The notes below the pieces were generated by a model, which did no database searches, was not told the origin of the DNA, and saw only the letters and a program-made list of their open reading frames with translations. Below, in pieces: positions 750 through 50,089 of a stretch of DNA of 64,000 nt. This DNA is from Candidatus Woesearchaeota archaeon. GTDB lineage: Archaea > Nanobdellota > Nanobdellia > Pacearchaeales > GW2011-AR1. The stretch covers positions 68,879-132,878 of the forward strand of contig CAZJEO010000002.1 of NCBI GenBank assembly GCA_964545065.1, written 5' to 3'. The translations under genes were made by a program, and so were the position numbers. Positions within the stretch are counted from its first letter, which is position 1; each line of letters starts with the position of its first letter.

Positions 750-1808
750 ATGATACCAGAGAAAGTTAAGAAAGTTTTGAAGAAACAACATTATGGACTT
801 GTTGGTCGGCATTCTGCTGTGCAGATTTGTAGATGGACGAAGAAGTCGATGCGAGACGAGGGTGTTTGTTATAAGGAGAAGTTTTATGGGATTAAATCGC
901 ATCAATGTTGCCAGATGACGCCTGCTGTGATGTGGTGTCCGAATAAGTGTTTGCATTGTTGGAGGGCTGTTGAATTGACAATTGGAGATAAGTTGGGGGA
1001 GGGAATTGATTCGCCTAAGGAGATTATTGATGGTTGCATTAAAGCTCAGAGAAAATTGTTGACTGGTTTTAAGAAATCAAAAGAGAAGAGAAATTTTAGC
1101 AGAGCTAATATGGAAAAATGGGAAGAAGCTCAGGAGCCTATGCAGTTTGCTATTTCACTTTCGGGTGAGCCATTTATTTATGATAAGATTGGAGAGTTGA
1201 TTGAAGAGTTGAGGAAAAGAGGCAAGACAAATTTTGTTGTGACTAACGGACTTTATCCTGAAAAAATTAAAGAGTTGGCTGAGAAAAAACAATTGCCAAC
1301 ACAACTTTATATTTCTGTTAATACTCCGAATAAAGAAATGTATGAGAAGTTTCATAGGAGTTCTATGAAAGATGCTTGGGAAAAATTGAATCAGAGTTTG
1401 GAGATAATGTCTGAGTTGACACCACAGGCGTATACCCAAAAAGGGCACGAGAACCTCTCCCAAGGCCCCGATAAATCTTCTGCAAAGATTTCTACTAGGG
1501 GCAAATGTCGTACGATATTCAGAATGAACCTTGTTAAGGGTTTGAATATGGAAAATAAGATGATTAAAGAATATGCTGAGTTGATTAAAAAGGCGAAGCC
1601 TATGTTTGTCGAGGTTAAAGGATTTATGAGTGTGGGATTTGCGCGAGATAGGTTAGGTTATGACAAGATGCCTACAGACAAAGAGATGCTTGAGTTTGTA
1701 AAAAAGTTAGGAAAAGAAACTGGGTTGAAACTTTTGGATAGCCATGAATTTTCAAGAGCATATATTTTGGGAAAGAGTGGAGAGGGGATGAAGATTAAGG
1801 GGAATTAA
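750..1808 (+). CDS. taw1: tRNA 4-demethylwyosine synthase (Taw1/TYW1-type radical SAM)
   Basis: Cys-rich N-terminal segment (CRWTKKS..GVCYKEKFYG..CCQMTP) plus CPNKCLHCWR (CxxxCxxC), typical of TYW1/Taw1. Carries a repeat-element insertion at 1420-1505. Confidence 0.75.
   Translation: MIPEKVKKVLKKQHYGLVGRHSAVQICRWTKKSMRDEGVCYKEKFYGIKSHQCCQMTPAVMWCPNKCLHCWRAVELTIGDKLGEGIDSPKEIIDGCIKAQRKLLTGFKKSKEKRNFSRANMEKWEEAQEPMQFAISLSGEPFIYDKIGELIEELRKRGKTNFVVTNGLYPEKIKELAEKKQLPTQLYISVNTPNKEMYEKFHRSSMKDAWEKLNQSLEIMSELTPQAYTQKGHENLSQGPDKSSAKISTRGKCRTIFRMNLVKGLNMENKMIKEYAELIKKAKPMFVEVKGFMSVGFARDRLGYDKMPTDKEMLEFVKKLGKETGLKLLDSHEFSRAYILGKSGEGMKIKGN
1420..1505 (+). repeat. In-frame palindromic mini-element, long form, diverged copy (inside taw1)
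   Basis: CACCACAGGCGTATACC...GGCCCCGATAAATCTTCTGCAAAGATTTCTACTAGGGGCAAA aligns with the copies at 17558 and 25138. Inner stem AAATCTT/AAGATTT; outer stem GCCCC/GGGGC. Confidence 0.7.
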
Positions 1809-2986: not shown

Positions 2987-3073
2987 ACCCAAAACTTCTC
3001 TGAACTTTACCGTTAACTACATCGTCGAAGTTCACAATTCTGAACACAGACGCATCATGTAGGAGGTATTAAG

Positions 3074-3145
3074 ATGGCATTAAAGGAAGACTTACAAAGA
3101 GTAAATCAAAGATTTTCACTAATCAATTTTTCAAAATGGAATTAA
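3074..3145 (+). CDS. Leader uORF upstream of rpl1 (MALKEDLQRVNQRFSLINFSKWN)
   Basis: ATG preceded by GGAGG at 8-nt spacing. Its first 15 nt (ATGGCATTAAAGGAA) nearly duplicate the rpl1 start (ATGGAATTAAAAGAA at 3136). The stop overlaps the rpl1 start. It shares the GTAAATCAA..AGATTTTCA core with the uORFs at 15739 and 24078. Confidence 0.45.
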   Translation: MALKEDLQRVNQRFSLINFSKWN

Positions 3146-16026: not shown

Positions 16027-16728
16027 ATGGGGAAACGAATAATTCAACAGGCGCGTGGAAAGGGAAGTAAGACTTACAGAGTTCGAAGAAAGGCTTTTAG
16101 ATTTAAAATAAAATACCCTAGCAAGTTAGAAGGCGAAGGAACTGTTATCAAGTTGCTTAATTCTCCTGGGCATACTGCTCCTTTGGCAAAAGTGAAATAC
16201 AACGAAGGAATTTTCTACATGCCTGCGTTTAAGGGAATGATTGAAGAACAAAAAATAAGTTTTGACAATAAAGAAATAAAAGAAGGAAACATTTTAGAAC
16301 TTAGAAATATTCCAATAAAAACTCGGATTTATAATGTTGAATCGCGACCTAGAGATGGTGGGGTTTTCGTAAGAGGTGCGGGAAATGTTGCAGAAGTTAA
16401 GAGAATTTCAGAAGAAGGAATTTTTGTTGCATTGCCTTCGAAAAAAGAAAGGAAATTTAACCCAAGTTGTAGAGCAACTGTTGGAGTTATTGCTGGTTCA
16501 GGAAGATTAGAAAAGCCAATTGTTAAAGCTGGGAAAAAGCACCACATGAAAAAGGCTAAGAACAAGTTGTGGCCTAGAACATCTGCGGTTAAGATGAATG
16601 CTATTGATCATCCATTTGGTTCTGGTAGAGGAAAAGTTCCAAAAAGCAAAGTTGCTAAGAGGAATGCACCACCAGGAAGAAAGGTTGGATTGATAAGACC
16701 TGCAAGAACAGGTAGGAGAAAAAGATAA
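16027..16728 (+). CDS. rpl2: 50S ribosomal protein L2 (uL2)
   Basis: MGKRIIQQARGKGS start, GHTAPLAKV and the conserved C-terminal basic region. Confidence 0.95.
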   Translation: MGKRIIQQARGKGSKTYRVRRKAFRFKIKYPSKLEGEGTVIKLLNSPGHTAPLAKVKYNEGIFYMPAFKGMIEEQKISFDNKEIKEGNILELRNIPIKTRIYNVESRPRDGGVFVRGAGNVAEVKRISEEGIFVALPSKKERKFNPSCRATVGVIAGSGRLEKPIVKAGKKHHMKKAKNKLWPRTSAVKMNAIDHPFGSGRGKVPKSKVAKRNAPPGRKVGLIRPARTGRRKR

Positions 16729-16958
16729 TGGAATATGGAAAAATGTCTGATGATGAATTGATGAAAGTATACGAAAGTAGATTGGAAAAAGTAAATGAAA
16801 TTAGAAAAAATCAAGGTTTAGGCGATGAAGAACGATTATCAGTAACAAGGGCATCAAGGAACAACTTAATTATTGAAACATTATCTTTAGATTGCGTAAT
16901 CCTGCGTCACCGAGCAGCAGAATCAATTAAATCATCCGCAGAATCATTAAAATATTAA
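16728..16958 (+). CDS. Small lineage-specific ORF (76 aa) intercalated between rpl2 and rps19
   Basis: TAATG overlap with rpl2, 1-nt spacer to rps19. No homology recognised. Confidence 0.5.
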   Translation: MEYGKMSDDELMKVYESRLEKVNEIRKNQGLGDEERLSVTRASRNNLIIETLSLDCVILRHRAAESIKSSAESLKY

Positions 16959-17362: not shown

Positions 17363-18070
17363 ATGACAGAAAAAGATTATAATCCAGAACAGAAAAATAA
17401 AAAAGTGATGAACACGCAAAAGGTAGTTGGAAAAGTAAATGAATCTCCTGTAAAAAAGGAAACTGCAAAAATTGCGCCAGAGGAAAAGAAAATAGCTTCG
17501 CCTGGAGACGAAGGAGATAAAGAAGTAATTAATAACAAAGACAGCGGCGCTATTAAGACACCCAAGGGTGTACACCAAGGAGGTGCGAGTACCTCTTCGA
17601 GGCCTCGAGAAACTTCTGGAGAAGTTTCTACTAGGGGCAAAAAACAACCTGTAACTTCTAAAGTAAAAAAGAGTGAAGCAATTGTTAATGGAGTTGGTTT
17701 GCCTCTTTCAACAAAAACATCTGTTGCTATTTGTAAATTTATTCGTGGAAAAAGCATTCCAAAAGCAATTGCAAATTTAGAGCAAGTTATTGCTAAGAAA
17801 AAAGCTGTTCCAATGAAAGGCGAAATTCCTCATAGAAAAGGAAAAATTATGTCGGGAAGATTCCCAAAAAATGCTGCAGAATATTTTATTAAATTATTAA
17901 AGAATTTGCAAGCAAATGCAAACGCTAATGGTTTGGACGAGCCAGTTGTTGCTGAAGCTATGGCAAATATTGCGTCTCAACCTTATGGAAGATTTGGAAG
18001 AGTTCGAAGAAAGAGAACTCATGTTTTACTTAAGGCTAAAGACAAGAAAATGAAGGGAGGAAACAAATAA
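17363..18070 (+). CDS. rpl22: 50S ribosomal protein L22 (uL22) with a ~95-aa N-terminal extension
   Basis: ATG 1 nt after the rps19 stop. The conserved uL22 core starts near GLPLSTKTSVAICKFIRGK. The extension contains the long repeat element. Confidence 0.85.
   Translation: MTEKDYNPEQKNKKVMNTQKVVGKVNESPVKKETAKIAPEEKKIASPGDEGDKEVINNKDSGAIKTPKGVHQGGASTSSRPRETSGEVSTRGKKQPVTSKVKKSEAIVNGVGLPLSTKTSVAICKFIRGKSIPKAIANLEQVIAKKKAVPMKGEIPHRKGKIMSGRFPKNAAEYFIKLLKNLQANANANGLDEPVVAEAMANIASQPYGRFGRVRRKRTHVLLKAKDKKMKGGNK
17558..17641 (+). repeat. In-frame palindromic mini-element, long form (rpl22 N-terminal extension; TPKGVHQGGASTSSRPRETSGEVSTRGK)
   Basis: ACACCCAAGGGTGTACACCAAGGAGGTGCGAGTACCTCTTCGAGGCCTCGAGAAACTTCTGGAGAAGTTTCTACTAGGGGCAAA. 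Inner stem AGAAACTTCT/AGAAGTTTCT. Confidence 0.9.
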
Positions 18071-18834
18071 TGGAAGAAAGAAATACAGTTAAATTTAGAA
18101 AAGATGAATTTGCTATCAAGGAATATATTAAAAAGCAACTTGGAAAAGGTAAGGTTAGCAAAGTTAGGATTGAATACACTCCTATTGGGGAGAAGATAAT
18201 TGTTTCAACAAGCAAGCCTGGTTTGGTTATTGGGAGAAAAGGAGAGAGAATTGAAGAGTTGACAATTATTTTGAAAAAGAAGTTCAAGCTTGAGAATCCG
18301 ATAGTTGAGATTGATGAGATTTTAAACCCAGAGTTTGATGCTCAGATTATTGCTGATGAGATTGCGCTTGGGTTAGAGAGGAGTGGGCCGTTGAAGTTTA
18401 AAGTTATTGCTTATCGGACATTGCAGAAAATAATGGGTGCAGGAGCTCTTGGAGCTGAGATAGTTATTGGGGGAAAATTGCCAGGAGCAAGGGCAAAATC
18501 CTGGAGGTTTGCTCAAGGATATTTAAAGAAAACAGGAGATAGTGCAAAGATTGTTGACAGAGCGAAATCAACTGCGCAAACAAAACCAGGAACTGTTGGA
18601 ATTAAAGTTAGTATACTTTCACCAGATGCTGTCTTTAAGGATAAAATAAAGATTGATGATGAAGTTATTGCAAAATTAAAGAATGCTGCAGAGGAAGTTG
18701 CGCCCAAGGGTGTACCCCGAGATATTTCTAAAGAAATATCTACCGAGGGCAAAGAGCAACAGAAAAAGAAAATAGTAAAAACTAAACTGGTATCTAAAGG
18801 TGTACCTTCTAAGGAAGGCAAGGCGGCGAAATAA
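18070..18834 (+). CDS. rps3: 30S ribosomal protein S3 (uS3)
   Basis: KH domain (LVIGRKGERIEEL) and conserved position. The C-terminal tail holds two repeat copies. Confidence 0.95.
   Translation: MEERNTVKFRKDEFAIKEYIKKQLGKGKVSKVRIEYTPIGEKIIVSTSKPGLVIGRKGERIEELTIILKKKFKLENPIVEIDEILNPEFDAQIIADEIALGLERSGPLKFKVIAYRTLQKIMGAGALGAEIVIGGKLPGARAKSWRFAQGYLKKTGDSAKIVDRAKSTAQTKPGTVGIKVSILSPDAVFKDKIKIDDEVIAKLKNAAEEVAPKGVPRDISKEISTEGKEQQKKKIVKTKLVSKGVPSKEGKAAK
18700..18754 (+). repeat. In-frame palindromic mini-element, medium form (rps3 tail; APKGVPRDISKEISTEGK)
   Basis: GCGCCCAAGGGTGTACCCCGAGATATTTCTAAAGAAATATCTACCGAGGGCAAAG. Inner stem GATATTTCT/AGAAATATC. Confidence 0.85.
18793..18823 (+). repeat. 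In-frame palindromic mini-element, short form, diverged (rps3 tail; SKGVPSKEGK)
   Basis: TCTAAAGGTGTACCTTCTAAGGAAGGCAAGG. The stem is CCTTC/GAAGG instead of CCCTC/GAGGG, a paired compensatory change. Confidence 0.65.
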
Positions 18835-18835
18835 A

Positions 18836-19048
18836 ATGGCAATACTTAAAACAAAAGAAATTAGAAACATGAGCGTTGGAGATAGAGAAAAGAAAATGAA
18901 AGAATTGAAAATGGAATTGGTTAAATCTCGATCTGGAAATTCAAAGACAGGTAACAAAACAAAAGAGATTAAAAGGATTATTGCAAAAATACTTACACTC
19001 AACAAAGCCGAGGAGAAATCACCTCAGGAGGTTGAGAAAAACAAATAA
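18836..19048 (+). CDS. rpl29: 50S ribosomal protein L29 (uL29)
   Basis: MAILKTKEIRNMS..ELKMEL is typical uL29. ATG 1 nt after the rps3 stop. Confidence 0.9.
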   Translation: MAILKTKEIRNMSVGDREKKMKELKMELVKSRSGNSKTGNKTKEIKRIIAKILTLNKAEEKSPQEVEKNK

Positions 19049-19049
19049 C

Positions 19050-19346
19050 ATGGAAATATGTCCGAAATGTGGTTTGCCTGAGCAAGCCTGCGTGTGTGAG
19101 CAGATTGTGAAAAGTTCACAAAGGATAAAGGTAACAACAGACCGTAAAAGATACGGTAAGATCGTCACTGTTGTTTCTGGATTTGGAGAGGGGATAGACG
19201 TGAAGAAGATCGCAAAAGCTCTGAAAAACGAGCTTGCTTGTGGGGGAACCTCCAAGGACAATGTGATCGAGCTTCAAGGCGACCACAGGAAGAAGATGAC
19301 AGGCCTGTTGGTTGAGTTAGGGTTTGAAGAAAACTCCATCGATTGA
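19050..19346 (+). CDS. Translation initiation factor SUI1 (aIF1)
   Basis: N-terminal CPKCGLPEQACVC zinc knuckle and the SUI1 core (GKIVTVVSGF..ELACGGT). G+C visibly higher than neighbouring genes. Confidence 0.85.
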   Translation: MEICPKCGLPEQACVCEQIVKSSQRIKVTTDRKRYGKIVTVVSGFGEGIDVKKIAKALKNELACGGTSKDNVIELQGDHRKKMTGLLVELGFEENSID

Positions 19347-19363
19347 ACACACAAAGAAACAAA

Positions 19364-19756
19364 ATGGAAAAAATAGAAGAAAAGAAACAGATAGAGAAAG
19401 AAACAGCTAAGACAGCTGGAGCTGGATGTGAAGATAAGAATTGTCATGTTCATGGTAGCTTGAAAGTTCGTGGAAAAATCTTTGAAGGAGAAGTTATCAA
19501 GAAATTCCCTAAGAGAGTTGTTATTCAATTTGAAAGAATGATTTATGTTAGAAAATATGAAAGATACAAAAAAAGTAAGACAAAGATTCACGCAAGACTT
19601 CAAGATTGTATGAAGGATGATGTTCAAGTTGGAGATATGATTAGGATTCAAGAATGTCGACCTTTGAGTAAGATTATACATTTTATAGTGCTAGGGAAAA
19701 TCACACCCAAAGGTGTACCCTCTAAAGAGGGCAAAGCCAAGGAGGAAAAGAAATGA
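19364..19756 (+). CDS. rps17: 30S ribosomal protein S17 (uS17)
   Basis: CEDKNCHVHG and RIQECRPLSK motifs. First ATG in the ORF. The tail carries the short repeat. Confidence 0.9.
   Translation: MEKIEEKKQIEKETAKTAGAGCEDKNCHVHGSLKVRGKIFEGEVIKKFPKRVVIQFERMIYVRKYERYKKSKTKIHARLQDCMKDDVQVGDMIRIQECRPLSKIIHFIVLGKITPKGVPSKEGKAKEEKK
19703..19736 (+). repeat. In-frame palindromic mini-element, short form (rps17 tail; TPKGVPSKEGK)
   Basis: ACACCCAAAGGTGTACCCTCTAAAGAGGGCAAAG, near-identical to the rpl3 copy. Confidence 0.85.
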
Positions 19757-20154
19757 AAGCAATAAGTGCAAAGATAACACCAGGAGTGAGTATAGGCTCA
19801 ACATTAATTGCAGCCAGTAATAGTGGAGCAAAGATTGTGCGGTTGGTTGGAGTAAAGAGAGCTAAGGCCAAGAAGGGTCACCATGTTTCAGCGAAAGTGG
19901 CTGACTTGGTTAAAGTTTCTGTAAGAAAAGGTGTGCCAGATATGAAAGGTCATGTGTTTGACGCAATTGTTGTAAGACAGAGAAAATCATACAGAAGACT
20001 TAATGGAGAAAGAATTGCATTTGAAGATAATGCTGTTGCGATTTTGAAAGATGATAAAGGAAATCCCAAGGGAACTCAGATTAAAGGACCTGTTGCAAGG
20101 GAGGTGCAAGAGCGATGGCCGCAAGTTGCGAAGATTGCTAGTGTGGTAGTTTAA
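19753..20154 (+). CDS. rpl14: 50S ribosomal protein L14 (uL14)
   Basis: Typical uL14 sequence. ATGA overlap with rps17. Confidence 0.95.
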   Translation: MKAISAKITPGVSIGSTLIAASNSGAKIVRLVGVKRAKAKKGHHVSAKVADLVKVSVRKGVPDMKGHVFDAIVVRQRKSYRRLNGERIAFEDNAVAILKDDKGNPKGTQIKGPVAREVQERWPQVAKIASVVV

Positions 20155-20155
20155 G

Positions 20156-20401
20156 ATGAAAGATAGAAAGACAGTATTATTAGAAAGGGCAGCAGGAATT
20201 GATTTTCTTGCAAGCGTAATCGGTGCTTTTGTGGGGGGAGAATATTTAGAAAGAGCAAAAAACCTGTATGAAAAAATAACAATAAAATATGAGGAAGAAA
20301 TAGGGGAAAAATGGCCAATTCAGTGGAGATTAAATGAAATAAGAAAACTGGAAGCAGAAGAATTTCCTTACCCAATAGAAACACATTCAACACTTTTATA
20401 A
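20156..20401 (+). CDS. Small lineage-specific ORF (81 aa) intercalated between rpl14 and rpl24
   Basis: 1-nt spacers on both sides. No homology recognised. Confidence 0.5.
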   Translation: MKDRKTVLLERAAGIDFLASVIGAFVGGEYLERAKNLYEKITIKYEEEIGEKWPIQWRLNEIRKLEAEEFPYPIETHSTLL

Positions 20402-20402
20402 A

Positions 20403-20918
20403 ATGAAACAAAAATTTAGTAAAGCATGGAAAGCAAGTTCACAGCCTCGGAAGCAGAGGAAATATGCAGCGAATGCTCCGATACATTTGAAGCGAAAACT
20501 TTTGAGTGTTAATCTTGCGAAAGATTTGAGAACAAGACATAAAAAGAAAAATATTCCTGTGCGAAAAGGAGATACTATTTTAGTTATGCGTGGGAAATTC
20601 AAAGGGAAAAAAGGAAAAGTAAATGAAGTTAAAACAAAAATGGAGAAAATTTATGTTGAAGGTATTCAAGTGAAAAAGCGAGATGGTACAACAGTTAATG
20701 TTCCGTTGAAGGCATCGAATTTGCAGATTATTGAATTGTATATGGAAGATGGGAAAAGAATTAAAAGGATGCAGGAAGAAAAGAAAGAGAGCAAGGGAAA
20801 AAAGAATGCTGAATCTAAAGATTCAGAAGATAAAAAAGATAATAAGAAAGACAGCGGGGTGGTGGATAAAGTGAAAAAGCAAGATAATAAAAAGGAAAAT
20901 GCGGAGGTAAAGAAATAA
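20403..20918 (+). CDS. rpl24: 50S ribosomal protein L24 (uL24) with a K/E-rich C-terminal extension
   Basis: KOW motif VRKGDTILVMRGKFKGKKGKV and conserved position. Confidence 0.9.
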   Translation: MKQKFSKAWKASSQPRKQRKYAANAPIHLKRKLLSVNLAKDLRTRHKKKNIPVRKGDTILVMRGKFKGKKGKVNEVKTKMEKIYVEGIQVKKRDGTTVNVPLKASNLQIIELYMEDGKRIKRMQEEKKESKGKKNAESKDSEDKKDNKKDSGVVDKVKKQDNKKENAEVKK

Positions 20919-21145
20919 TGAAAACAGAAACAAGAAATTTAATTAGAAATTGTAGAAAACTAAAAAAAGTGCATAAAATAGCTAAAAAATGTGTTTCTTT
21001 AAATGATTTGCAATTTTCTTTAAAGATTTTCGAAACAAACTTGGATCGACTTGGAAAAAGAGTACCCGAAGATCCCAGAGCAGGTCGTGCATTTAGGAAA
21101 TATCAAGCATTTTATAATAGAAAATGTGCGGAGGTTTATCGATAA
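20918..21145 (+). CDS. Small lineage-specific ORF (75 aa) intercalated between rpl24 and rps4e
   Basis: TAATG overlaps at both ends. Basic helical protein, no homology recognised. Confidence 0.5.
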   Translation: MKTETRNLIRNCRKLKKVHKIAKKCVSLNDLQFSLKIFETNLDRLGKRVPEDPRAGRAFRKYQAFYNRKCAEVYR

Positions 21146-21789
21146 TGGCATACTTAAAACGACAAAAAGTTCCGAAGAATTGGCCTATTCATAGAAAAGG
21201 CACAACTTATGTAGTTAGGCCTGGTTTTAGTATTGGGAAGGGAATTCCTATTTTGATTATTTTGCGGGATATTTTGAAAGTTGCAGCAAATCGAAGAGAA
21301 GCTAAAAGAATAATTCACGCGAAACAAGTTTTATTGAATAATAAACCTGTAATGGATGACAAGCACAATGTTTTGTTACTTGATTGTATAAGTATTGTTC
21401 CATCAAATAAATTCTATAGAATGAATTTATCAGATAAAGGAAAATTCAAACTTGAAGAAGTTAAAGCTGAGGAAGCAGGAAGAAAAGTTTCTAAGATAGT
21501 AAATAAGAAAACTTTGAAAGGAAAAAAGACTCAATTGAATTTGAGTGATGGGAGAAATTTCTTGTCTGATTTGAAATGTAATGTTAATGATTCTGTTTTG
21601 ATTAATCTTTTAGAAAAGAAATTAGAAAAATGTATCCCATTACAAGAAAAAGCAAAGGTTCTTGTTTTTGAAGGAAAACACGCTGGTGAAAAAGGTGTAA
21701 TCGATAAGCTTAAAGACAAAACAGCAGAGATAAAGATGGAAGATAGAACAGTTGATATTTTAATTAAACAGTTGATGGTGGTTGAATAA
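21145..21789 (+). CDS. rps4e: 30S ribosomal protein S4e (eS4)
   Basis: MAYLKRQKVPKNWPIHRKGTTYVVRP is the typical eS4 N-terminus. Confidence 0.9.
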   Translation: MAYLKRQKVPKNWPIHRKGTTYVVRPGFSIGKGIPILIILRDILKVAANRREAKRIIHAKQVLLNNKPVMDDKHNVLLLDCISIVPSNKFYRMNLSDKGKFKLEEVKAEEAGRKVSKIVNKKTLKGKKTQLNLSDGRNFLSDLKCNVNDSVLINLLEKKLEKCIPLQEKAKVLVFEGKHAGEKGVIDKLKDKTAEIKMEDRTVDILIKQLMVVE

Positions 21790-22102
21790 AATGGATGAAA
21801 CAAAAATAAGAAGGCAATTGGGAGTAGAACAACAACTTGTTGATATGGCAAAGTCAGCAGCTGAAGCTAGTTGTTATCAAGAAACTGCAGAATTATTAGA
21901 TAAGGCGAAAAGGTGTAAGGATGTAGTTTATGGATTGTTGATGGAGGCTGAACCAGATGAAAACGGGCTTGCTAGGATGACATGTGAAGTTCCCTCAAAC
22001 ATGGAAAGGACAAGAAACCATCCTTTTGCTAAGGATACTCAAAGAATCTATTCAGAAGGAGAAAAATATTGTATGCATAAACTTCAAAGGATATGTAATT
22101 AA
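21782..22102 (+). CDS. Small lineage-specific ORF (106 aa, several Cys) intercalated between rps4e and rpl5
   Basis: 8-nt overlap with rps4e, 1-nt spacer to the rpl5 ORF. No homology recognised. Confidence 0.5.
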   Translation: MNKMDETKIRRQLGVEQQLVDMAKSAAEASCYQETAELLDKAKRCKDVVYGLLMEAEPDENGLARMTCEVPSNMERTRNHPFAKDTQRIYSEGEKYCMHKLQRICN

Positions 22103-22103
22103 A

Positions 22104-22769
22104 ATGACAGATAAAGAAGAAGAAACTAAAATGGCAGAAGAAACAGCACCCAAGGGTGTACACCAAGGAGGCGCGAGTACCTCTTCGCCAAGTAGGTCTG
22201 AAAGAAGGCCCCTAGACATTTCTCAAGAAATGTCTACTGAGGGCAAAGAAAAACAAATGGCATCCAAGGAGAATCCAATGCGAGAAATAAAAATCGAGAA
22301 GATTGTTCTTAGCATAGGTGGGATTGGAGAAGACTTGGAAAAGGGTGTTAAGCTTTTGAAACTTATTACTGGAAGAGTTCCTGCTAAAAAAAGATCAAAC
22401 AAAAGAATTCCAACTTTGAATGTTCGACCGAAACTTGAAATTGGAGCAATGGTTACAATCAGGCAAAACATAAAAGAGTTTTTGGAAAAAATGCTTGTTG
22501 CTATTGATAATACTTTGAAGAGAAAACAAATAAGTGAAAATAATTTTTCATTTGGAATCCATGAATATATTGAGATTCCAGGAGTAGAATATCAGAGAGA
22601 ACTTGGAATCATGGGATTTGATGTTACTGTTGTTTTCAAAAGAGCAGGACGAAGAGTTAAGTTGAGAAAAGTGAAGCGAGGAAAAGTTTCAAAGCGACAA
22701 GTTATAAGCAAAGAAGAAATAATTAAATTCATGGAAGAAAATTTTAATACGGAGTTTGTGGGGAAATGA
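22104..22769 (+). CDS. rpl5: 50S ribosomal protein L5 (uL5); alternative start at 22257
   Basis: The conserved uL5 core begins at MASKENPMREIKIEKIVLSIG (ATG 22257). The in-frame upstream 51 codons from ATG 22104 consist mostly of the long repeat element. Confidence 0.85.
   Translation: MTDKEEETKMAEETAPKGVHQGGASTSSPSRSERRPLDISQEMSTEGKEKQMASKENPMREIKIEKIVLSIGGIGEDLEKGVKLLKLITGRVPAKKRSNKRIPTLNVRPKLEIGAMVTIRQNIKEFLEKMLVAIDNTLKRKQISENNFSFGIHEYIEIPGVEYQRELGIMGFDVTVVFKRAGRRVKLRKVKRGKVSKRQVISKEEIIKFMEENFNTEFVGK
22146..22248 (+). repeat. In-frame palindromic mini-element, long form with an extra 18-nt module (5' of the rpl5 core)
   Basis: GCACCCAAGGGTGTACACCAAGGAGGCGCGAGTACCTCTTCG[CCAAGTAGGTCTGAAAGA]AGGCCCCTAGACATTTCTCAAGAAATGTCTACTGAGGGCAAAG. 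Inner stem TAGACATTTCT/AGAAATGTCTA. Confidence 0.9.
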
Positions 22770-23467
22770 TGATGAAGATTGCAGAAAAAATATTTGAGAA
22801 ATATCCTGAATTTGAAGTGGGGGTTATTATAGCGAGAGATTTGGATAATTCAAAATATAATGAAGAAATCCAAGGATTAATAAGGGGAATTGAAAAAGAA
22901 ACTAGGGAAAAAATAGATCCAGAAGAAGTTACTCAGAATCCAACTATTGCTAAGTGGAGAGAAATATATAAATCATTTGGAGCAAAGCCAAGCGATTATA
23001 GAAATTCTGTTGAAGCATTAATTAAAAGGGTCCTTAAAACAGAATTATATAAAATAAATCCTCTTGTGGATTTGTATAATTATATTTCTATAAAATATAT
23101 AATGACTGCTGGCGGAGAAGATATTGACAAAATAGAAGGTGACTTAATATTAGATTTTGCTAATGGAGATGAAGAGTTTATTCCGCTTGGAGAAGAAGAG
23201 AACAAATCTCCTTGGGAAGGAGAAGTTGTGTATAAAGATGATAAGGGCGCTATTTGTAGATGTTGGAATTGGAGAGAGGGCGATAGAACAAAACTTACAG
23301 AAGACACTAAAAATGCTGTGTTAGTTATTGAGAACATAATTCCAGAAGATAATGAAAAGTTAAAAGAAGCTTTAGAAGAACTTAAATCATTAATTGAAAA
23401 ATATTGTGGAGCAAAATGTGAAACTCATATTTTAAATAAAGAAAATTCAGAGGTGGATTTAAAATGA
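22766..23467 (+). CDS. Free-standing B3/B4 (PheRS-beta editing-like, tRNA-binding) domain protein
   Basis: NPLVDLYNYISIKYIMTAGGEDIDKIEG resembles the B3_4 domain signature. ATGA overlaps with rpl5 and rps14. Confidence 0.55.
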   Translation: MMMKIAEKIFEKYPEFEVGVIIARDLDNSKYNEEIQGLIRGIEKETREKIDPEEVTQNPTIAKWREIYKSFGAKPSDYRNSVEALIKRVLKTELYKINPLVDLYNYISIKYIMTAGGEDIDKIEGDLILDFANGDEEFIPLGEEENKSPWEGEVVYKDDKGAICRCWNWREGDRTKLTEDTKNAVLVIENIIPEDNEKLKEALEELKSLIEKYCGAKCETHILNKENSEVDLK

Positions 23468-23694
23468 CTGCAAGTGATTGGAAAAAGGTTTTGAAACAGA
23501 TACGGAACAAACCAGCGAAAGCTGCACGGTTTTTGAAACACAACAAGCCGAAAGAAAGGAAGATTGGAATCGCTGTGAATAAATGCGAGAGGTGTGGAAG
23601 ATTTGGCGCTCACATAAAATCATACGGATTAAATTTATGCCGACACTGTTTTCGAGAAATCGCGACAGAAATAGGTTTTCAAAAATATAGTTAA
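23464..23694 (+). CDS. rps14: 30S ribosomal protein S14 (uS14, zinc form)
   Basis: CERCGR...CRHCFRE zinc-ribbon motif and conserved position. Confidence 0.9.
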   Translation: MTASDWKKVLKQIRNKPAKAARFLKHNKPKERKIGIAVNKCERCGRFGAHIKSYGLNLCRHCFREIATEIGFQKYS

Positions 23695-23695
23695 A

Positions 23696-24076
23696 ATGAG
23701 TCAAGATATAGTCGCTGATGCGTTGAACATGTTACGAAATGCAAAGAAAGCTAGAAAGGATGTTGTTGAAATTAAGAAAATTTCAGATTTATTAATCGAG
23801 ATTTTAAAAATAATGAAACAGAAAGGCGCGATAAAGAAATACAAGATTGATGCTAAGAATAGAAGCATTGAAGTTACAATTGGAGACTTGTCAGAATGTA
23901 AAGCGATTAAGCCAAGGTTTACTGTTAAGAAAGAAGATGTTGAAAAGTACGTGAGACGATATTTGCCTGCGAGAAATTTGGGAACAATGGTTGTTTCTAC
24001 TAACAAAGGTTTGATGACTCACACAGAAGCTCAAGAAGAAAAAACGGGGGGATGCTTGATTGCATTTTTTTATTAA
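23696..24076 (+). CDS. rps8: 30S ribosomal protein S8 (uS8)
   Basis: DIVADALNMLRNA start, GGCLIAFFY end and conserved position. Confidence 0.95.
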   Translation: MSQDIVADALNMLRNAKKARKDVVEIKKISDLLIEILKIMKQKGAIKKYKIDAKNRSIEVTIGDLSECKAIKPRFTVKKEDVEKYVRRYLPARNLGTMVVSTNKGLMTHTEAQEEKTGGCLIAFFY

Positions 24077-24077
24077 A

Positions 24078-24152
24078 ATGAAAAAAGTAAATCAACCAAG
24101 TAGGTCTGAAGGAAGATTTTCATGTTTTCCTTTTTGGAGGAACCGAAAATGA
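24078..24152 (+). CDS. Leader uORF upstream of rpl6 (MKKVNQPSRSEGRFSCFPFWRNRK)
   Basis: ATG 1 nt after the rps8 stop. AAAATGAAAAAAG is duplicated at 24075-24087 and 24146-24158. Its stop overlaps the rpl6 ATG (ATGA), and GGAGG lies 8 nt before rpl6. Contains the GTAAATCAA..AGATTTTCA core plus the 18-nt module. Confidence 0.45.
   Translation: MKKVNQPSRSEGRFSCFPFWRNRK
24096..24115 (+). repeat. 18-nt module CCAAGTAGGTCTGAAGGA(AG), second copy (inside the rpl6 leader uORF)
   Basis: Matches 22188-22208 (CCAAGTAGGTCTGAAAGAAGG) with one mismatch. It is absent from the otherwise homologous leaders at 3101 and 15745. Confidence 0.7.
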
Positions 24153-24691
24153 AAAAAGAAATATTTCAAACAATAGAAATTCCTGAGGGAGTTGAAGCGA
24201 ATTTAGAAAAAGATATTCTTACTGTGAAGGGACCTGAAGGAGAGAATAAGAGAGAATTTGATATTACGAATCTTTCACTTGAGAAAAAAGATAATCAAAT
24301 AATTGTTGGGAATGCTAAGGCGACAAAAAAAGAAAAGAAAAGAATTGGAACTCTTGCTGCACATATTAAGAATATGATTAAAGGTGTTCAGGAAAAGTTT
24401 GAATACAAGTTGAAAATTTGTTTTAGCCATTTCCCTATGACTGCTGAGATGCAAGGAAAGGAAGTTATAATCAAGAATTTCTTAGGAGAAAAAATTCCTA
24501 GAAAGGTTGCGATTCGAGATGGCGCTGAAGTTAAGATAGAGAAAGATATTATTACTGTTACTTCTGTGGATAAAGAAATCGCTGGACAAGTTGCGGCTAA
24601 TTTTGAAACAGCTACAAAGGTTCCTTTGAAAGATAGAAGAGTTTTCCAAGATGGAATTTATATTACAAATAAAGCAGGGAGGGAAATGTAA
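24149..24691 (+). CDS. rpl6: 50S ribosomal protein L6 (uL6)
   Basis: MKKEIFQTIEIPEGV is the typical uL6 start. SD-like GGAGG upstream. The longer track ORF from 24122 is less likely. Confidence 0.9.
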   Translation: MKKEIFQTIEIPEGVEANLEKDILTVKGPEGENKREFDITNLSLEKKDNQIIVGNAKATKKEKKRIGTLAAHIKNMIKGVQEKFEYKLKICFSHFPMTAEMQGKEVIIKNFLGEKIPRKVAIRDGAEVKIEKDIITVTSVDKEIAGQVAANFETATKVPLKDRRVFQDGIYITNKAGREM

Positions 24692-25227
24692 TGGCTCCAA
24701 CATTTTTAAGACGAACAAGTTTTAGGTATTCAAAACTTGGAAAGGGTAGAAAGAAAAAACAAGTTTGGAGAAGACCGACTGGAAGAGATAATAAAATGCG
24801 GGAAAGAAGGAAAGGATATCCTGCTGTGGTTAGTGTTGGATACAAGACAAATAAAAAAGAACACAAAAATATTGTGAATGTTGAAAATTTAAAGGATTTG
24901 GCAAAAGTACAAAAAGGAGATGTTGTTGTTTTTGGAAATATTGGAAAAAAGAAAAAAATAGAACTTGCAAAAAAGGCAAAAGAAATGAAAATTGAAATCA
25001 GTAATTTAAATATTGAAAAGTTTTTAAAAAAGATTAAAGAGAAGGAAGAGAAGAAAGTTGAAGTTGAGACAAAAGGAAAAAAGATAGTTAAGAAAACTGG
25101 AGTGAAGAAGAAAGAAGAAACTAAATCAGATGGAGTCGCACCCAAGGGTGTACACCAAGAAGGTGCGAGTACCTCTTCGAGGCCCCGAAACATTTCCAAG
25201 GAAATGTCTACTGGGGGCAAAAAATGA
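24691..25227 (+). CDS. rpl32e: 50S ribosomal protein L32e (eL32) with a C-terminal extension
   Basis: FLRRTSFRYSKLG..WRRPTGRDNKMR is the eL32 core. The tail ends with the long repeat element. Confidence 0.9.
   Translation: MAPTFLRRTSFRYSKLGKGRKKKQVWRRPTGRDNKMRERRKGYPAVVSVGYKTNKKEHKNIVNVENLKDLAKVQKGDVVVFGNIGKKKKIELAKKAKEMKIEISNLNIEKFLKKIKEKEEKKVEVETKGKKIVKKTGVKKKEETKSDGVAPKGVHQEGASTSSRPRNISKEMSTGGKK
25138..25221 (+). repeat. In-frame palindromic mini-element, long form (rpl32e C-terminus, abutting the rpl19e start)
   Basis: GCACCCAAGGGTGTACACCAAGAAGGTGCGAGTACCTCTTCGAGGCCCCGAAACATTTCCAAGGAAATGTCTACTGGGGGCAAA. Inner stem ACATTTCC/GGAAATGT. Confidence 0.9.
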
Positions 25228-25631
25228 ATTTAGCAAAAAAGAAAAACTTAGCAGCAAGAACATTAGGAGTTGGAAGAAAGAGAATTGTTTTCTTAGCTCC
25301 GCGAATGGATGAAATCAAAGAAGCCATTACTAAACAAGATATTCGAGATTTGAAAGAAGAAGGAGCAATAATTATCAAAGATGTTAAAGGGAAGAAAAAA
25401 GTTGAGAAGAGAAACAGACGAAGAAGTACTGGGAAGATTCGAAAGAAAGTTAATATTCGAAAAAAGCAATATGTTATTATGACTAAAAAATTGAGAACTT
25501 ATGTTGTTGGTTTGGTTGAAGCAGGAAAAATAACTAAAGAAGATTCTGTGGATATGAGAAAGAAAATAAAGAATAAATTTTTCAGAAGTAAAGCTCACAT
25601 GAAAGAATATGTTGGAGGATTGGAGAAATGA
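25224..25631 (+). CDS. rpl19e: 50S ribosomal protein L19e (eL19)
   Basis: MNLAKKKNLAARTLGVGRKRI is the typical eL19 start. Confidence 0.95.
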   Translation: MNLAKKKNLAARTLGVGRKRIVFLAPRMDEIKEAITKQDIRDLKEEGAIIIKDVKGKKKVEKRNRRRSTGKIRKKVNIRKKQYVIMTKKLRTYVVGLVEAGKITKEDSVDMRKKIKNKFFRSKAHMKEYVGGLEK

Positions 25632-26137: not shown

Positions 26138-27005
26138 AATTACAGAAAAAGCTAAACAAATAGATGCTGGAAATAGAAGAGCCTTTGGTGGTTCTCCAGA
26201 AGATAGAAAGAAAAGATTTCAGCAAAGAATTGAAGAAGAAGAAAGAGAAAGATTAGCTAGTTGGAAACCAAAAACAAAACTTGGAAGAGAAGTAAGAGAA
26301 GGGAAGATAAAAAATATTGATGAAATTCTTGATTCAGGAAGAAAAATTATGGAATCTGAAATTGTTGATTTGGTTGCAAATGTTAAATCTGATTTAATTT
26401 TCGTTGGACAATCAAAAGGAAAGTTCGGTGGTGGAAAGAGAAGAGTTTGGAGACAAACGCAGAGAAAAACTCGTGAAGGAAATGTTCCTACTTTTTCAAC
26501 AATGGCTGTTATAGGAGATGGGAATGGGCATATTGGAATTGGCGATGGGAAGTCTAAGGAAACTTTGCCTGCAAGAGATAAAGCAACAAAGAAAGCTAAG
26601 TTGAATATTTTTAGAATTACAAGAGCTTGTGCTGGTTTTGATTGTGCTTGTTCTGAATTACATTCTGTTCCATTCAAAGTTACTGGAAAATCTGGAAGTG
26701 TTAGAGTTACATTAATCCCTGCACCACAAGGAACTGGATTGGTTGTGGCAAATGAATTAAAGAAAATTTTGAAACTTGCTGGAATCAAAGATGTTTATAG
26801 TAGAACTTCGGGTAAACAGCGAACATCTTTTAACTTGATTAAGGCTTGTATTGAAGCTTTAAAGAAAACAAATGGTGATAAGCAAGTTGTTGCAAAACAA
26901 GTGATTAAAAAAGTTGAAAAGAAAGAAGAAGTTGTAGAAAAGAAACCTGTGAAAACTGACGAAAAGAAAACAGAATCAAAAGAAGTTAAGGAGGTTGGGA
27001 AATGA
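26127..27005 (+). CDS. rps5: 30S ribosomal protein S5 (uS5) with a K/E-rich C-terminal extension
   Basis: uS5 core (GDGNGHIGIGDGKSKE) and first ATG in the ORF. Confidence 0.9.
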   Translation: MESKITEKAKQIDAGNRRAFGGSPEDRKKRFQQRIEEEERERLASWKPKTKLGREVREGKIKNIDEILDSGRKIMESEIVDLVANVKSDLIFVGQSKGKFGGGKRRVWRQTQRKTREGNVPTFSTMAVIGDGNGHIGIGDGKSKETLPARDKATKKAKLNIFRITRACAGFDCACSELHSVPFKVTGKSGSVRVTLIPAPQGTGLVVANELKKILKLAGIKDVYSRTSGKQRTSFNLIKACIEALKKTNGDKQVVAKQVIKKVEKKEEVVEKKPVKTDEKKTESKEVKEVGK

Positions 27006-27229
27006 ATTTAGTTGAAACTGCAGTTGTAGCTTTGGAAAAGGTTGTTAATGTGTATTGTGATGATAAGTCCCGAAAAGGGATGGATGAAGTTAGAGATTAC
27101 TATGCTACTTATGAGAAAGTTCTTTCAAGTGAAGGAGAGGGTTTGCCAGAAGAAACTATTCTGGAACTTGAAGGGCGAGCTAAAACTGCTTATAAAACAT
27201 TTTGGGAGAATAAAACACCATGCTGGTAG
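27002..27229 (+). CDS. Small lineage-specific ORF (75 aa) intercalated between rps5 and rpl30
   Basis: ATGA overlap with rps5 and a 10-nt overlap with rpl30. No homology recognised. Confidence 0.5.
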   Translation: MNLVETAVVALEKVVNVYCDDKSRKGMDEVRDYYATYEKVLSSEGEGLPEETILELEGRAKTAYKTFWENKTPCW

Positions 27230-27567: not shown

Positions 27568-28118
27568 TAACTAAAAAACGAACAAAAGCATCTCGACAAC
27601 ATGGAAGAAACATGGGAACACACGGAGGCGGAGCTAGGAAAAAGCGAAAAGGTTCAGGGCATAGAGGAGGAAAAGGAATGTCTGGAAGTGGAAAGCGAGC
27701 AGACCAGAAGAAAACTCTTGTGATAAAACTTTATGGTCATGAGTATTTCGGTAAGCAGGGAATCACAAGCAGGGGAACAAAAAGAGATACAAGACAAAGA
27801 ATTAATCTTCAACAAATTGAAAATAATTTAGAGAAATATGGACACCAAGGGCGTACCCCGAAAGATTTTGATAAAAAATCTTTACAAGGGGCAAAGCAAG
27901 GAAAAGATGGTTGGGAAATTGAATTAGGAAAATATAAAATTCTTGGAAATGGCGAAGTTAAGAATAAATTAATTATTACAGCTATGGAAGCTTCTGCATC
28001 TGCGGTTGAGAAAGTGAAGAAAGCTGGCGGGGAGATAATTGTTAATGCTCACCGCTCGGTGTACCCCAAATTGCAGAATAAAGGGGCAAAAAAAGAGGAA
28101 AACATTGAAGAAAAATGA
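27564..28118 (+). CDS. rpl15: 50S ribosomal protein L15 (uL15)
   Basis: G/R/K-rich N-terminus (GGGARKKRKGSGHRGGKG) and conserved position. Holds two repeat copies. Confidence 0.9.
   Translation: MITKKRTKASRQHGRNMGTHGGGARKKRKGSGHRGGKGMSGSGKRADQKKTLVIKLYGHEYFGKQGITSRGTKRDTRQRINLQQIENNLEKYGHQGRTPKDFDKKSLQGAKQGKDGWEIELGKYKILGNGEVKNKLIITAMEASASAVEKVKKAGGEIIVNAHRSVYPKLQNKGAKKEENIEEK
27842..27896 (+). repeat. Palindromic mini-element, medium form, read in a different frame (inside rpl15; HQGRTPKDFDKKSLQGAK)
   Basis: ACACCAAGGGCGTACCCCGAAAGATTTTGATAAAAAATCTTTACAAGGGGCAAAG. Inner stem AAAGATTTT/AAAATCTTT; outer stem CCCC/GGGG. Confidence 0.75.
28050..28090 (+). repeat. Palindromic mini-element, short/diverged form, third reading frame at the 5' arm (rpl15 C-terminal region)
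   Basis: CACCGCTCGGTGTACCCCAAATTGCAGAATAAAGGGGCAAA retains the GGTGTACCCC and GGGGCAAA arms. Confidence 0.55.
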
Positions 28119-30727: not shown

Positions 30728-31228
30728 ATGGAAAACGAACAACAAGAAATGATGTTTAAGATGCAAATGTTTGATCAACAGATTAAGCAGTTGCAACAAC
30801 AATTACAAGCAATTGATCAAGGGATTTCAGAAATGACTGCTTTGAACGAAGGACTTAGTGAACTAGTTGGGAAAGAAGGGAAAGAAATTTACGCTCCAAT
30901 TGGTAGGGGCATATTTGCAAAAGCTAAACTTATTTCAGAAGATTTGAATGTTGATGTTGGTGGAGGAAACATGGTTAAGAAAACTATTCCTGAAACTAAA
31001 AAGATAATTGAAGACCAACTTAAGAAACTTGATGAAGTTAAGAAAGAGCTTGAAACTGGTATGGAAAAAATGGGCGAAGAATTTAAGGTCCTGATTGAAG
31101 ATGCTCAGGCTAAAGAAGCTGGGAATATTGGAAAGAAAGAGGAAGGGAAAGAAAAGAAACCAACAAAGACATCAAACATTTCCCAAGAAATGTCTACTAA
31201 AGGCAAGAAAATTGATGAGTTGGTTTAA
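30728..31228 (+). CDS. pfdA: Prefoldin alpha subunit
   Basis: Coiled coil, beta-hairpin region (IYAPIGRGIFAKAKL..VDVGGGNMV), coiled coil. The tail carries a partial repeat. Confidence 0.7.
   Translation: MENEQQEMMFKMQMFDQQIKQLQQQLQAIDQGISEMTALNEGLSELVGKEGKEIYAPIGRGIFAKAKLISEDLNVDVGGGNMVKKTIPETKKIIEDQLKKLDEVKKELETGMEKMGEEFKVLIEDAQAKEAGNIGKKEEGKEKKPTKTSNISQEMSTKGKKIDELV
31174..31207 (+). repeat. Palindromic mini-element, 3' half only (prefoldin tail; NISQEMSTKGK)
   Basis: AAACATTTCCCAAGAAATGTCTACTAAAGGCAAG. Stem ACATTTC/GAAATGT followed by CTACTA-AGGCAAG, as in the long copies. Confidence 0.6.
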
Positions 31229-45100: not shown

Positions 45101-45151
45101 TAGAATAAAATTTAAAAGCTTCTTTATTAATTTAATAAAATGAAAATAATG
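45101..45151 (+). repeat. Left arm of a 51-nt inverted repeat covering the promoter/5' end of a B12-radical SAM gene
   Basis: TAGAATAAAATTTAAAAGCTTCTTTATTAATTTAATAAAATGAAAATAATG is 50/51 identical to the reverse complement of 50039-50089. Confidence 0.85.
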
Positions 45152-50050: not shown

Positions 50051-50089
50051 TTTATTAAATTAATAAGGAAGCTTTTAAATTTTATTCTA
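50039..50089 (-). repeat. Right arm of the 51-nt inverted repeat (promoter/5' end of paralogue 4)
   Basis: Its reverse complement matches 45101-45151 with one mismatch. Confidence 0.85.

Follow-up and report, generated by a model that had tools for sequence, protein, structure and literature searches.

The stretch of DNA analysed here, referred to below as the window, comprises 64,000 nucleotides from a Candidatus Woesearchaeota archaeon (assembly GCA_964545065.1, contig CAZJEO010000002.1, positions 68,879 to 132,878 of the forward strand). The window is AT-rich (~33% GC) and contains an archaeal ribosomal-protein operon that extends from L3 at 13986 to L15 at 27564 and is followed by SecY; its proteins are closest to sequences from Pacearchaeota and other DPANN archaea. 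Distributed along the plus strand are at least 14 GC-rich elements of a single repeat family, 12 core copies and two leader cassettes, all of which lie in the open frame of the host gene (Table 1). Two of the features in Table 1, the N-terminal extension of L5 and the leader of L6, carry the same 18-nt module, which we term M. Our best reading is that the family consists of in-frame palindromic repeat elements and that M appears to behave like a very small mobile or accreting DNA module.

The core copies are built from hairpins that we number hp1 to hp4. The minimal form, present in L3, S3 and S17, consists of hp1 (CACCCAAGGGTG-TAC) followed by CCCTC-TAAA-GAGGG-CAAAG and encodes the peptide APKGVPSKEGK. 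The intermediate form, present in S3 and L15, has a variable palindrome (hp4) within the second stem, and the full form, present in L22, L32e, L5 and a Tyw1-like gene, adds hp2 (CACC-AAGGA-GGTG) and hp3 (CCTC-TTCG-AGG). One pair of the hp4 stem, compared across 18 copies, is A-U in eight, C-G in seven, G-C in two and U-A in one, so that compensatory changes keep the stems. These compensatory changes, together with an L15 copy whose frame differs from that of all others, place the constraint on the nucleic acid and not on the peptide.

The initial annotation of this DNA held that an 18-mer (CCAAGTAGGTCTGAARGA) is nested in two different insert families, and this was borne out: the window contains exactly two copies, of which the one in L5 has the AAAGA form and the one upstream of L6 the AAGGA form, with no third match within the window at up to three mismatches, and two or more matches were obtained in 0 of 100 shuffles. 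It also described the L5 element as equal to those of L22 and L32e with exactly 18 nt added. Alignment with MAFFT indeed gives a single 18-column gap, between CTCTTCG and AGGCC; since the L5 element without these 18 nt matches L22 at 72/83 and L32e at 75/83 positions, 'equal' is to be understood as ~87-90% identity plus the insert. The corresponding statement for the leaders, that the rpl6 leader is the rpl1 leader core plus the same 18 nt, holds as well: the junction without M (GTAAATCAAAGATTTTCA) occurs once, at 3101-3118 upstream of rpl1, with no match in 100 shuffles, and the flank common to both leaders is 19 nt, AGTAAATCAA/AGATTTTCA, where the slash, here and below, marks the point of insertion. 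As had been noted, AG follows directly 3' of both copies, the peptides PSRSER and PSRSEG are read in the local open frame, and the insertions are multiples of three, which is true of every insertion into a coding region.

M itself consists of a conserved core (CCAAGTAGGTC) followed by a 3-bp mini-hairpin, TCY-NNN-RGA; its loop sequence is CCAAGUAGGUC, and in L5 it lies within the stretch ...STSSPSRSERRPLD.... M is a paralogue of the 18-nt hp2 unit (CCAAGGAGGTGCGAGTAC versus CCAAGTAGGTCTGAAAGA). The two insert families share building blocks, because the flank AGATTTTCA of the rpl6 leader is also the left arm of hp4 in two of the loci collected from public data (L024 and L002; such loci are denoted by L and three digits, ribosomal proteins by one or two).

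Table 1. Repeat-family features in the window (uORF, upstream open reading frame).
Feature	Position	Strand	Remarks
Module M, copy 1 (CCAAGTAGGTCTGAAAGA)	22188-22205	+	hp3 loop of the L5 N-terminal element; read PSRSER
Module M, copy 2 (CCAAGTAGGTCTGAAGGA)	24096-24113	+	tip of the hairpin in the S8-L6 leader cassette; read PSRSEG in the uORF
Composite element, L5 N-terminal extension	22147-22247	+	hp1, hp2, hp3 with M, hp4, GGGCAAA tail
48-nt block (30-nt hp2+hp3 block and M)	22162-22209	+	missing from the otherwise identical orthologous L5 element in L054
Full element without M, L22 N-terminal extension	17559-17641	+	
Full element without M, L32e C-terminus	25139-25221	+	L050 orthologue without the 30-nt hp2+hp3 block
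Divergent full element, compensatory stem changes	1420-1505	+	inside the Tyw1-like radical-SAM gene (750-1808)
Minimal element (APKGVPSKEGK) inside L3	14353-14384	+	at the orthologous site in L057; not in L050
Intermediate element (hp1+hp4), S3 C-terminal extension	18701-18753	+	
Minimal element, S3 C-terminus	18791-18823	+	
Minimal element, S17 C-terminus	19704-19735	+	
Intermediate element inside L15	27843-27895	+	different frame (HQGRTPKDFDKKSLQGAK)
Further family member, L15 C-terminus	28050-28090	+	
hp4 and tail only, prefoldin C-terminus	31176-31211	+	L039 orthologue has an extra upstream element containing M
Leader cassette with M, before L6	24078-24152	+	24-codon uORF (MKKVNQPSRSEGRFSCFPFWRNRK, then stop); stop overlaps the L6 ATG as ATGA
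Leader cassette without M, before rpl1	3074-3145	+	uORF MALKEDLQRVNQRFSLINFSKWN, then stop; GGAGG upstream (3062-3066); stop overlaps the L1 start (ATG 3136); shared core 3100-3118

Public data were scanned with the exact 20-mer formed by M and the following AG, in one genome for each of 185,579 species (GTDB) and in metagenomes. Because an exact match was required, the copy numbers must be taken as minima, and ascertainment accounts in part for how conserved M is among the matches; metagenome-assembled genomes (MAGs) are, in addition, incomplete. The 20-mer was found in eight species-representative genomes, all of them DPANN MAGs (labelled Woesearchaeota, Pacearchaeota, Nanoarchaeota or 'uncultured archaeon'), with one copy in each and each at a different locus. 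The metagenome scan returned 41 contigs, of which ~34 are family contexts and seven are evident chance matches (L010, L021, one repeated non-archaeal sequence in L028, L034, L035, L038 and L040). Scans of viral collections with the 20-mer and hp1 gave chance matches only (a giant-virus MAG and a GC-rich phage), and a protein-level search with the L5 extension peptide gave no candidates.

Taken together, these data contain 40 distinct contexts of M, in at least seven hairpin types of one GC-rich repeat family. Thirteen lie in the hp1 loop (CACCCA/AGGGTG or CACCTAA/AGGTG), ten in the hp3 loop (CCTCTTCG/AGGCC), four in an hp2-like loop (TACCCAA/AGGGCACGAG), four in the leader cassette (AAATCAA/AGATTTTCA), two at the foot of hp4 (CCCCGAA/AGATTTT, where variant modules provide a further two), two in another hairpin (TCCCCA/AGGGATGACTC) and one inside another module, at the CCA/AGTAGG site of M itself (L016; also L024 with a variant), with four unclassified. 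That the same 18-mer sits in the hp1, hp2-like, hp3 and hp4-base loops, in the leader cassette, in the TCCCCA/AGGGA hairpin and in another M supports the initial proposal that iterated self-nesting of one short unit links both insert families.

A purine precedes M in all 40 contexts (A in 29 and G in 11), the flanks take the form R/AG, and there is neither a target-site duplication nor a terminal inverted repeat; AG was part of the search pattern, and in variants detected independently of this requirement the next two bases are AG, GG or AC. The flanks form a stem of at least 5 bp in 17 of the 40 contexts, compared with 10% of control positions, and M is always in the sense orientation, on the transcribed strand. 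The variants (CCGAGTAGGTCCAGAGGA, ...TCCCGAGGA, ...TCCGTGGGA, ...TCTGGAGGA, ...TCTAGAAGA and ...TCTTGAAGA) keep the 11-nt core, while positions 12 and 16 covary as U-A, C-G or U-G. Alone, M has no stable fold (minimum free energy 0); within its contexts the host stem persists, with M largely unpaired. Only tRNAs reached the gathering score in Rfam 15, and a permissive scan of 17400-25400 gave chance-level matches only. Neither a kink-turn (L7Ae site), nor a loop E motif (AGUA/GAA), nor anticodon-loop mimicry fits the covarying 12-16 pair on inspection, and models of target-site duplication or microhomology (AAG, AG, CCA) fail to reproduce the observed junctions.

M is not the only 18-nt unit in the family. 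Another, TACCCAAAGAGGCACAAG, occupies the loop CCTCTAA/CGAGGG in L050 (16741-16810) and L039, and L045 has, but L009 lacks, a tail fragment of 18 nt, CTTTACAAGGGGCAAAAA. The hp2 arm (17574-17586 and 22162-22174) carries a perfect Shine-Dalgarno-like sequence, AAGGAGGTG, paired to CACC, the 16S 3'-tail sequence; GGAGG is the Shine-Dalgarno sequence before many genes of this operon, and CCAAGGAGG is the real Shine-Dalgarno context before L14 (19741). The 18-nt units may thus derive from Shine-Dalgarno regions. A different association was seen on the minus strand of L007, where three direct repeats resembling the 3' half of a tRNA (CCGAGTAGATCGCAGGTTCGATTCCTGCTGGGTCCA; reverse-complement positions 1962, 3275 and 3791) bound gene cassettes in an arrangement reminiscent of att sites; the third copy has family elements, including M, in the T-loop and after the T-arm.

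Comparison with relatives revealed clean presence/absence differences at orthologous sites. Within one cluster of L5 proteins (at least 90% identity, including the L5 of the window, P0122), four N-terminal states are found: no element, a minimal element (APEGVPQEGK), an intermediate element, and the full element with M. Specifically, the L5 element of L054 shares hp1, hp4 and identical flanks with that of the window and lacks only the 48-nt block, while L050, with an L5 core 94% identical to that of the window, has no element at all. In L22, the L006 orthologue carries an 18-nt variant of M in the hp2 loop, with flanks identical to those of the window (a clean 18-nt difference), and M in hp3 besides; in L057 only the minimal form is present. 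The orthologous genes of L009 and L045 differ by a clean 18-nt module at CCCCGAA/AGATTTT. At the N-terminus of an EMC3-like protein, hp1 lacks M in L055 and is accompanied by the 30-nt block; in L050 and L039, hp1 contains M and the second hairpin carries the TACCCAAAGAGGCACAAG unit; and the window has nothing there. The number of elements in the same operon is at least 12 in the window, four in L050, two in L055 and two in L057/L058. Judged from these comparisons, turnover of the elements among relatives is rapid. The 18-mer is thus confined neither to two sites nor to one state: related copies lie outside the window in DPANN genomes and metagenome contigs, and they are polymorphic.

These differences bear directly on whether M moves by itself. 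It could be argued that M was inserted only once, into a master element, and has since been copied as an immobile part of duplicating composites. Whole composites of hp3 and M do recur, in ten contexts including two in L036, and the L5 polymorphism relative to L054 comprises a 48-nt block and not 18 nt alone. However, given that M occupies at least seven different loop types, that M lies within M, and that differences of exactly 18 nt occur at orthologous hairpins (the hp2 loop of L22, L009 versus L045, and hp1 of the EMC3-like gene), we consider a single insertion improbable. Rather, the family grows by the precise addition of short units, namely the 18-nt M, 18-nt hp2-like units, the 30-nt hp2+hp3 block and hp4 palindromes, and these units are added and lost precisely at loops or junctions of pre-existing hairpins and in a fixed orientation. 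As the common site CCA/AG is carried by M itself, M can nest inside M.

Of the three frames of M, two are open (PSRSER and QVGLK) and one contains TAG and TGA. In 24 contexts that lie in long open reading frames (ORFs), M is in the first open frame (10) or the second (14) and in the stop frame in none (0/24); all contexts with the stop-containing frame are short or non-coding and lack a long ORF. Since the stop frame is never used in long ORFs, M is probably translated and not spliced, and copies persist only where the reading frame stays open. The alternative, that M is a mini-intron (of the archaeal bulge-helix-bulge type or self-splicing) or a bypassed insert, and is removed or skipped, has some precedent: archaeal tRNA introns are short, near-identical inserts at varied positions of structured RNAs. 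Likewise, GC clusters in the mitochondria of Magnusiomyces are bypassed in translation (PMC8811140). Nevertheless, the open frame in 24 of 24 contexts, the coding-region insertions that are all multiples of three, and the failure to draw a canonical bulge-helix-bulge by inspection at either window site lead us to regard removal or bypass as very unlikely.

The proteins that carry M are mutually unrelated, and by Pfam they include Kae1, IscU, class I and class II aminoacyl-tRNA synthetases, HisRS, TRM5/TYW2, a ThiI-like protein, TFE-alpha, L22, prefoldin and membrane proteins. When the Kae1 of L002 is compared with that of P. abyssi (PDB 2ivn), the element with M forms a 25-residue insertion after HCIAHxEI, and a second family element in the same protein (ETPQAYPEKSSAKIFTNGK) corresponds to a 17-residue gap relative to 2ivn. 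The coding copies are all in the sense orientation although the antisense strand also has open frames; peptides of the sense frames, located in tails and loops, score as hydrophilic (Kyte-Doolittle -1.3 to -2.6), whereas the antisense peptides are more hydrophobic. The orientation bias may stem from peptide selection, an RNA-level role or a strand-specific mechanism. The hydrophilic character and position of the peptides would also suit the notion that selection acts on PSRSER as a protein motif, or that it is a low-complexity expansion. However, the same nucleotides are kept in two reading frames (PSRSER or QVGLK) and in non-coding copies, identity is held at the nucleotide level with synonymous positions included, and a peptide conserved with synonymous nucleotide variation was not seen. 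We therefore attach almost no weight to a function of the peptide.

Besides coding regions, M occurs in the leader cassettes. The uORF of the L6 leader begins one base past the S8 stop. The cassette, ATGAAAG(Y)AAATCAA-M-AGATTTTCATTCAT..., also occupies the S8-L6 junction in L008, the L1-L10 junction in L013 and the S13-S4 junction in L033, and a search of the collected loci for the leader core without M gave a single match, in L018. The 5' and 3' parts of the cassette pair, giving a long imperfect hairpin that includes the uORF AUG and has M at its tip (by inspection; RNAfold support is weak). The S8 of L050 is 90.5% identical to that of the window, yet it has a plain TGATG overlap and no cassette, whereas the more distant L008 (71%) has the cassette; hence gain or loss affects the leader cassette too. 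The rpl1 uORF is preceded by a strong Shine-Dalgarno sequence of its own, while the L1 ATG has none and lies inside the end of the uORF, which suggests that translation of L1 may depend on termination-reinitiation. The gene upstream of the rpl1 leader (2486-2986) encodes a cytidine/tRNA deaminase and not L11.

The leaders bring forward the main rival explanation, namely that M is a host-selected, cis-acting RNA loop motif, displayed on stable hairpins of mRNAs, chiefly those of translation-related genes and of operon leaders, and bound by a protein or an RNA, that is held by purifying selection and spread by recombination among elements. Given that the 11-nt core is (nearly) invariant in copies other than those used as bait while host stems vary, that M has no fold of its own and sits unpaired atop host stems, that it is always on the transcribed strand, that the cassette precedes L6, L10 and S4 with M and L1 without it, and that the core resembles the Shine-Dalgarno context CCAAGGAGG of the operon, this explanation deserves to be taken seriously. 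It does not readily account for the presence or absence of M at the same site in close relatives, for hosts that are unrelated genes, for its occurrence in a degenerate tRNA-half repeat, for the restriction of the exact sequence to eight species representatives in the GTDB scan or for the lack of an Rfam match, and recombination alone cannot put M into seven different loop types. We consider an RNA motif of this kind rather doubtful.

On balance, we lean towards the view that M is the smallest sub-unit to recur in an in-frame, nested family of GC-rich hairpin repeats in AT-rich DPANN genomes of the Woesearchaeota/Pacearchaeota type, and that its units are selfish or accretionary. Under this reading, M and its paralogues would be DNA-level modules that are inserted and lost seamlessly. 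The most plausible route would be a process acting on the single-stranded loops of extruded hairpins, either a 'peel and paste' reaction like that of HUH/RAYT enzymes (RAYT, a tyrosine transposase associated with REPs, which are repetitive extragenic palindromic sequences) or replication/repair; the nearest mechanistic models would be single-strand transposition of the HUH/RAYT type and whatever moves the GC clusters of yeast mitochondria. Survival would then be filtered by the requirement that ribosomes read through. Retained copies are hydrophilic additions (PSRSER or QVGLKE) in tails and loops or mini-uORFs that bridge cistrons through an ATGA overlap, and such a filter would explain both the in-frame copies and the mini-uORFs that keep termination-reinitiation coupling. 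Mobility of M is suggested by sequence comparison. The stronger proposal, that M hops as an 18-nt mobile unit into single-stranded hairpin loops, its own included, is one that we put forward only tentatively.

Several points weigh against this interpretation. Neither a transposase nor another enzyme was found: a tblastn search of 370 kb from partly sampled genomes, with approximate IS200/IS608 queries, gave no match to TnpA, although this was a weak test. The exact copy number is low, at one per species genome in the GTDB scan, and, as the composite of hp3 and M occurs in ten contexts, part of the spread is that of whole composites and not of M alone. All mobilised substrates that we know of are far larger than a unit of 18 nt whose stem is 3 bp long. 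Furthermore, a host-selected RNA motif would also be compatible with a core that is invariant across species, with an orientation that is always sense and with the leaders before L1, L6, L10 and S4; translation is suggested by open frames, and exact-sequence scans contribute in part to the apparent conservation.

In the window, ORFs of 75-106 amino acids without a Pfam match also lie between ribosomal-protein genes (16728-16958, 20156-20401, 20918-21145, 21782-22102 and 27002-27229), and the relatives L050, L055 and L057/L058 have other small ORFs at other junctions of the same operon, for example one of 121 amino acids between S8 and L6 in L057. This suggests that the ribosomal-protein operon is a hot spot at which small genes insert. 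A B3/4-domain protein (PF03483, E 4e-33; 22766-23467) is encoded between L5 and S14 and is absent from that position in L050, L055 and L057. In addition, a 65-nt inverted repeat with 91% complementarity (45101-45165 and 50025-50089) comprises the common upstream region and first codons (MKIML...) of two oppositely oriented genes, which are probably paralogues.

If our preferred reading is correct, streamlined DPANN genomes carry proliferating, translated hairpin repeats in ribosomal proteins, aminoacyl-tRNA synthetases and tRNA-modification enzymes, and the phenomenon known from Rickettsia palindromic elements (RPEs) and GC clusters would extend to archaea. The orthologous sites of close relatives would then provide a clean growth series (none, minimal, intermediate, full, full with M). 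Since the unit is short, its core invariant and its targets defined, the movement of tiny palindromic units becomes directly testable. The family also bears on how N- and C-terminal 'extensions', uORFs and differences in protein length are annotated in DPANN MAGs, and on the use of indels in universal proteins as phylogenetic markers. Should M indeed hop between loops, no smaller mobile DNA (or RNA-templated) unit would be known, and DPANN archaea would possess an undescribed insertion/excision activity that builds translated, self-similar hairpin arrays in essential genes.

Searches of a literature library for the sequence of M and for in-frame repeats in DPANN archaea found no description. 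Several known systems share some features of the family. Archaeal bulge-helix-bulge introns are near-identical inserts of 12-20 nt or more at varied positions of structured sequences, are transposed among tRNA genes and are cut out at the bulge-helix-bulge. M was rejected as such an intron because the exon stems (CCTC/GAGG and AAATC/GATTT) abut the insert and leave no room, when drawn by hand, for a 4-bp central helix and 3-nt bulges, folds show none, and M is never in the stop frame within long ORFs. Nor is M a miniature inverted-repeat transposable element, as it has neither terminal inverted repeats nor a target-site duplication.

Elements of the IS200/IS605 group, and the PATE elements derived from them, move by 'peel and paste', with recognition of single-strand hairpins, no target-site duplication, precise excision and strand-specific insertion; they depend on TnpA, on a pair of subterminal hairpin ends measuring tens of nucleotides, and on an invariant tetra- or pentanucleotide 5' of the site. 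The family of M resembles them in the absence of target-site duplication, in seamless gain and loss, in fixed orientation and in its hairpin substrate. In contrast, the 5' flank of M is variable except for the purine at -1. No match to a RAYT/Y1 transposase was found by tblastn in 370 kb, with approximate IS200/IS608 queries and partly sampled genomes. GTAG-REPs are bacterial, accompany RAYT genes, have stems of 5-13 bp (Table 1 of PMC3733652), are mostly extragenic with some intragenic copies, and often form head-to-head dimers (PMC3733652). They have GTAG beside a stem; in M, GTAG is separated by a G from the 3-bp stem (GTAG, G, TCT-GAA-AGA), the hp4 palindrome is followed by CTAC, and other units of the family carry GTAC instead of GTAG. 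Like REPs, M is seamless and orientation-specific. Unlike REPs, M forms no dimers, and its stem of 3 bp (the covarying U/C-A/G pair, C-G and U-A) is below the range of 5-13 bp.

Translated hairpins inside protein genes are also tolerated in the coding palindromes of Nematomorpha mitochondria (PMC6649704) and in PARCEL repeats (PMC2996958), which are described as long inverted repeats or repeats of ~100 nt and not as nested 18-nt units. The GC clusters of yeast mitochondria are closer: they are inserted in frame in var1, end in AG/TAG motifs, undergo 'merger and shuffling' and are presumed to be mobile (PMC8811140). Like the family of M, they are short, GC-rich, palindromic and polymorphic units in an AT-rich genome, but they are organellar, and their terminal AG/TAG direct repeats are read as a target duplication, which M lacks. 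The bypassed elements (byps) of Magnusiomyces differ in that the frame is broken and bypassed, whereas every coding copy of M keeps the frame open.

The RPEs, of ~100-150 bp, offer the other close parallel. They too are dispersed hairpin repeats that lie in frame in functional protein genes, are read as extra residues and also occur in non-coding DNA. Insertion in frame within ORFs is documented for them (PMC3733652), and the family of M shows both this and the dispersal of hairpin repeats, with at least 12 copies in the window and more in other loci. As all matches of the M family are in DPANN archaea, we regard M, on a comparison of features, as an analogue of the RPEs and not as a member. 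Neither RPEs and REPs, nor GC clusters, nor the Nematomorpha palindromes are archaeal or reported as 18-nt units nested in loops; the RPEs belong to Rickettsia, a bacterium, and are not described as short units nested in each other's loops, whereas the family of M has an archaeal host and grows modularly.

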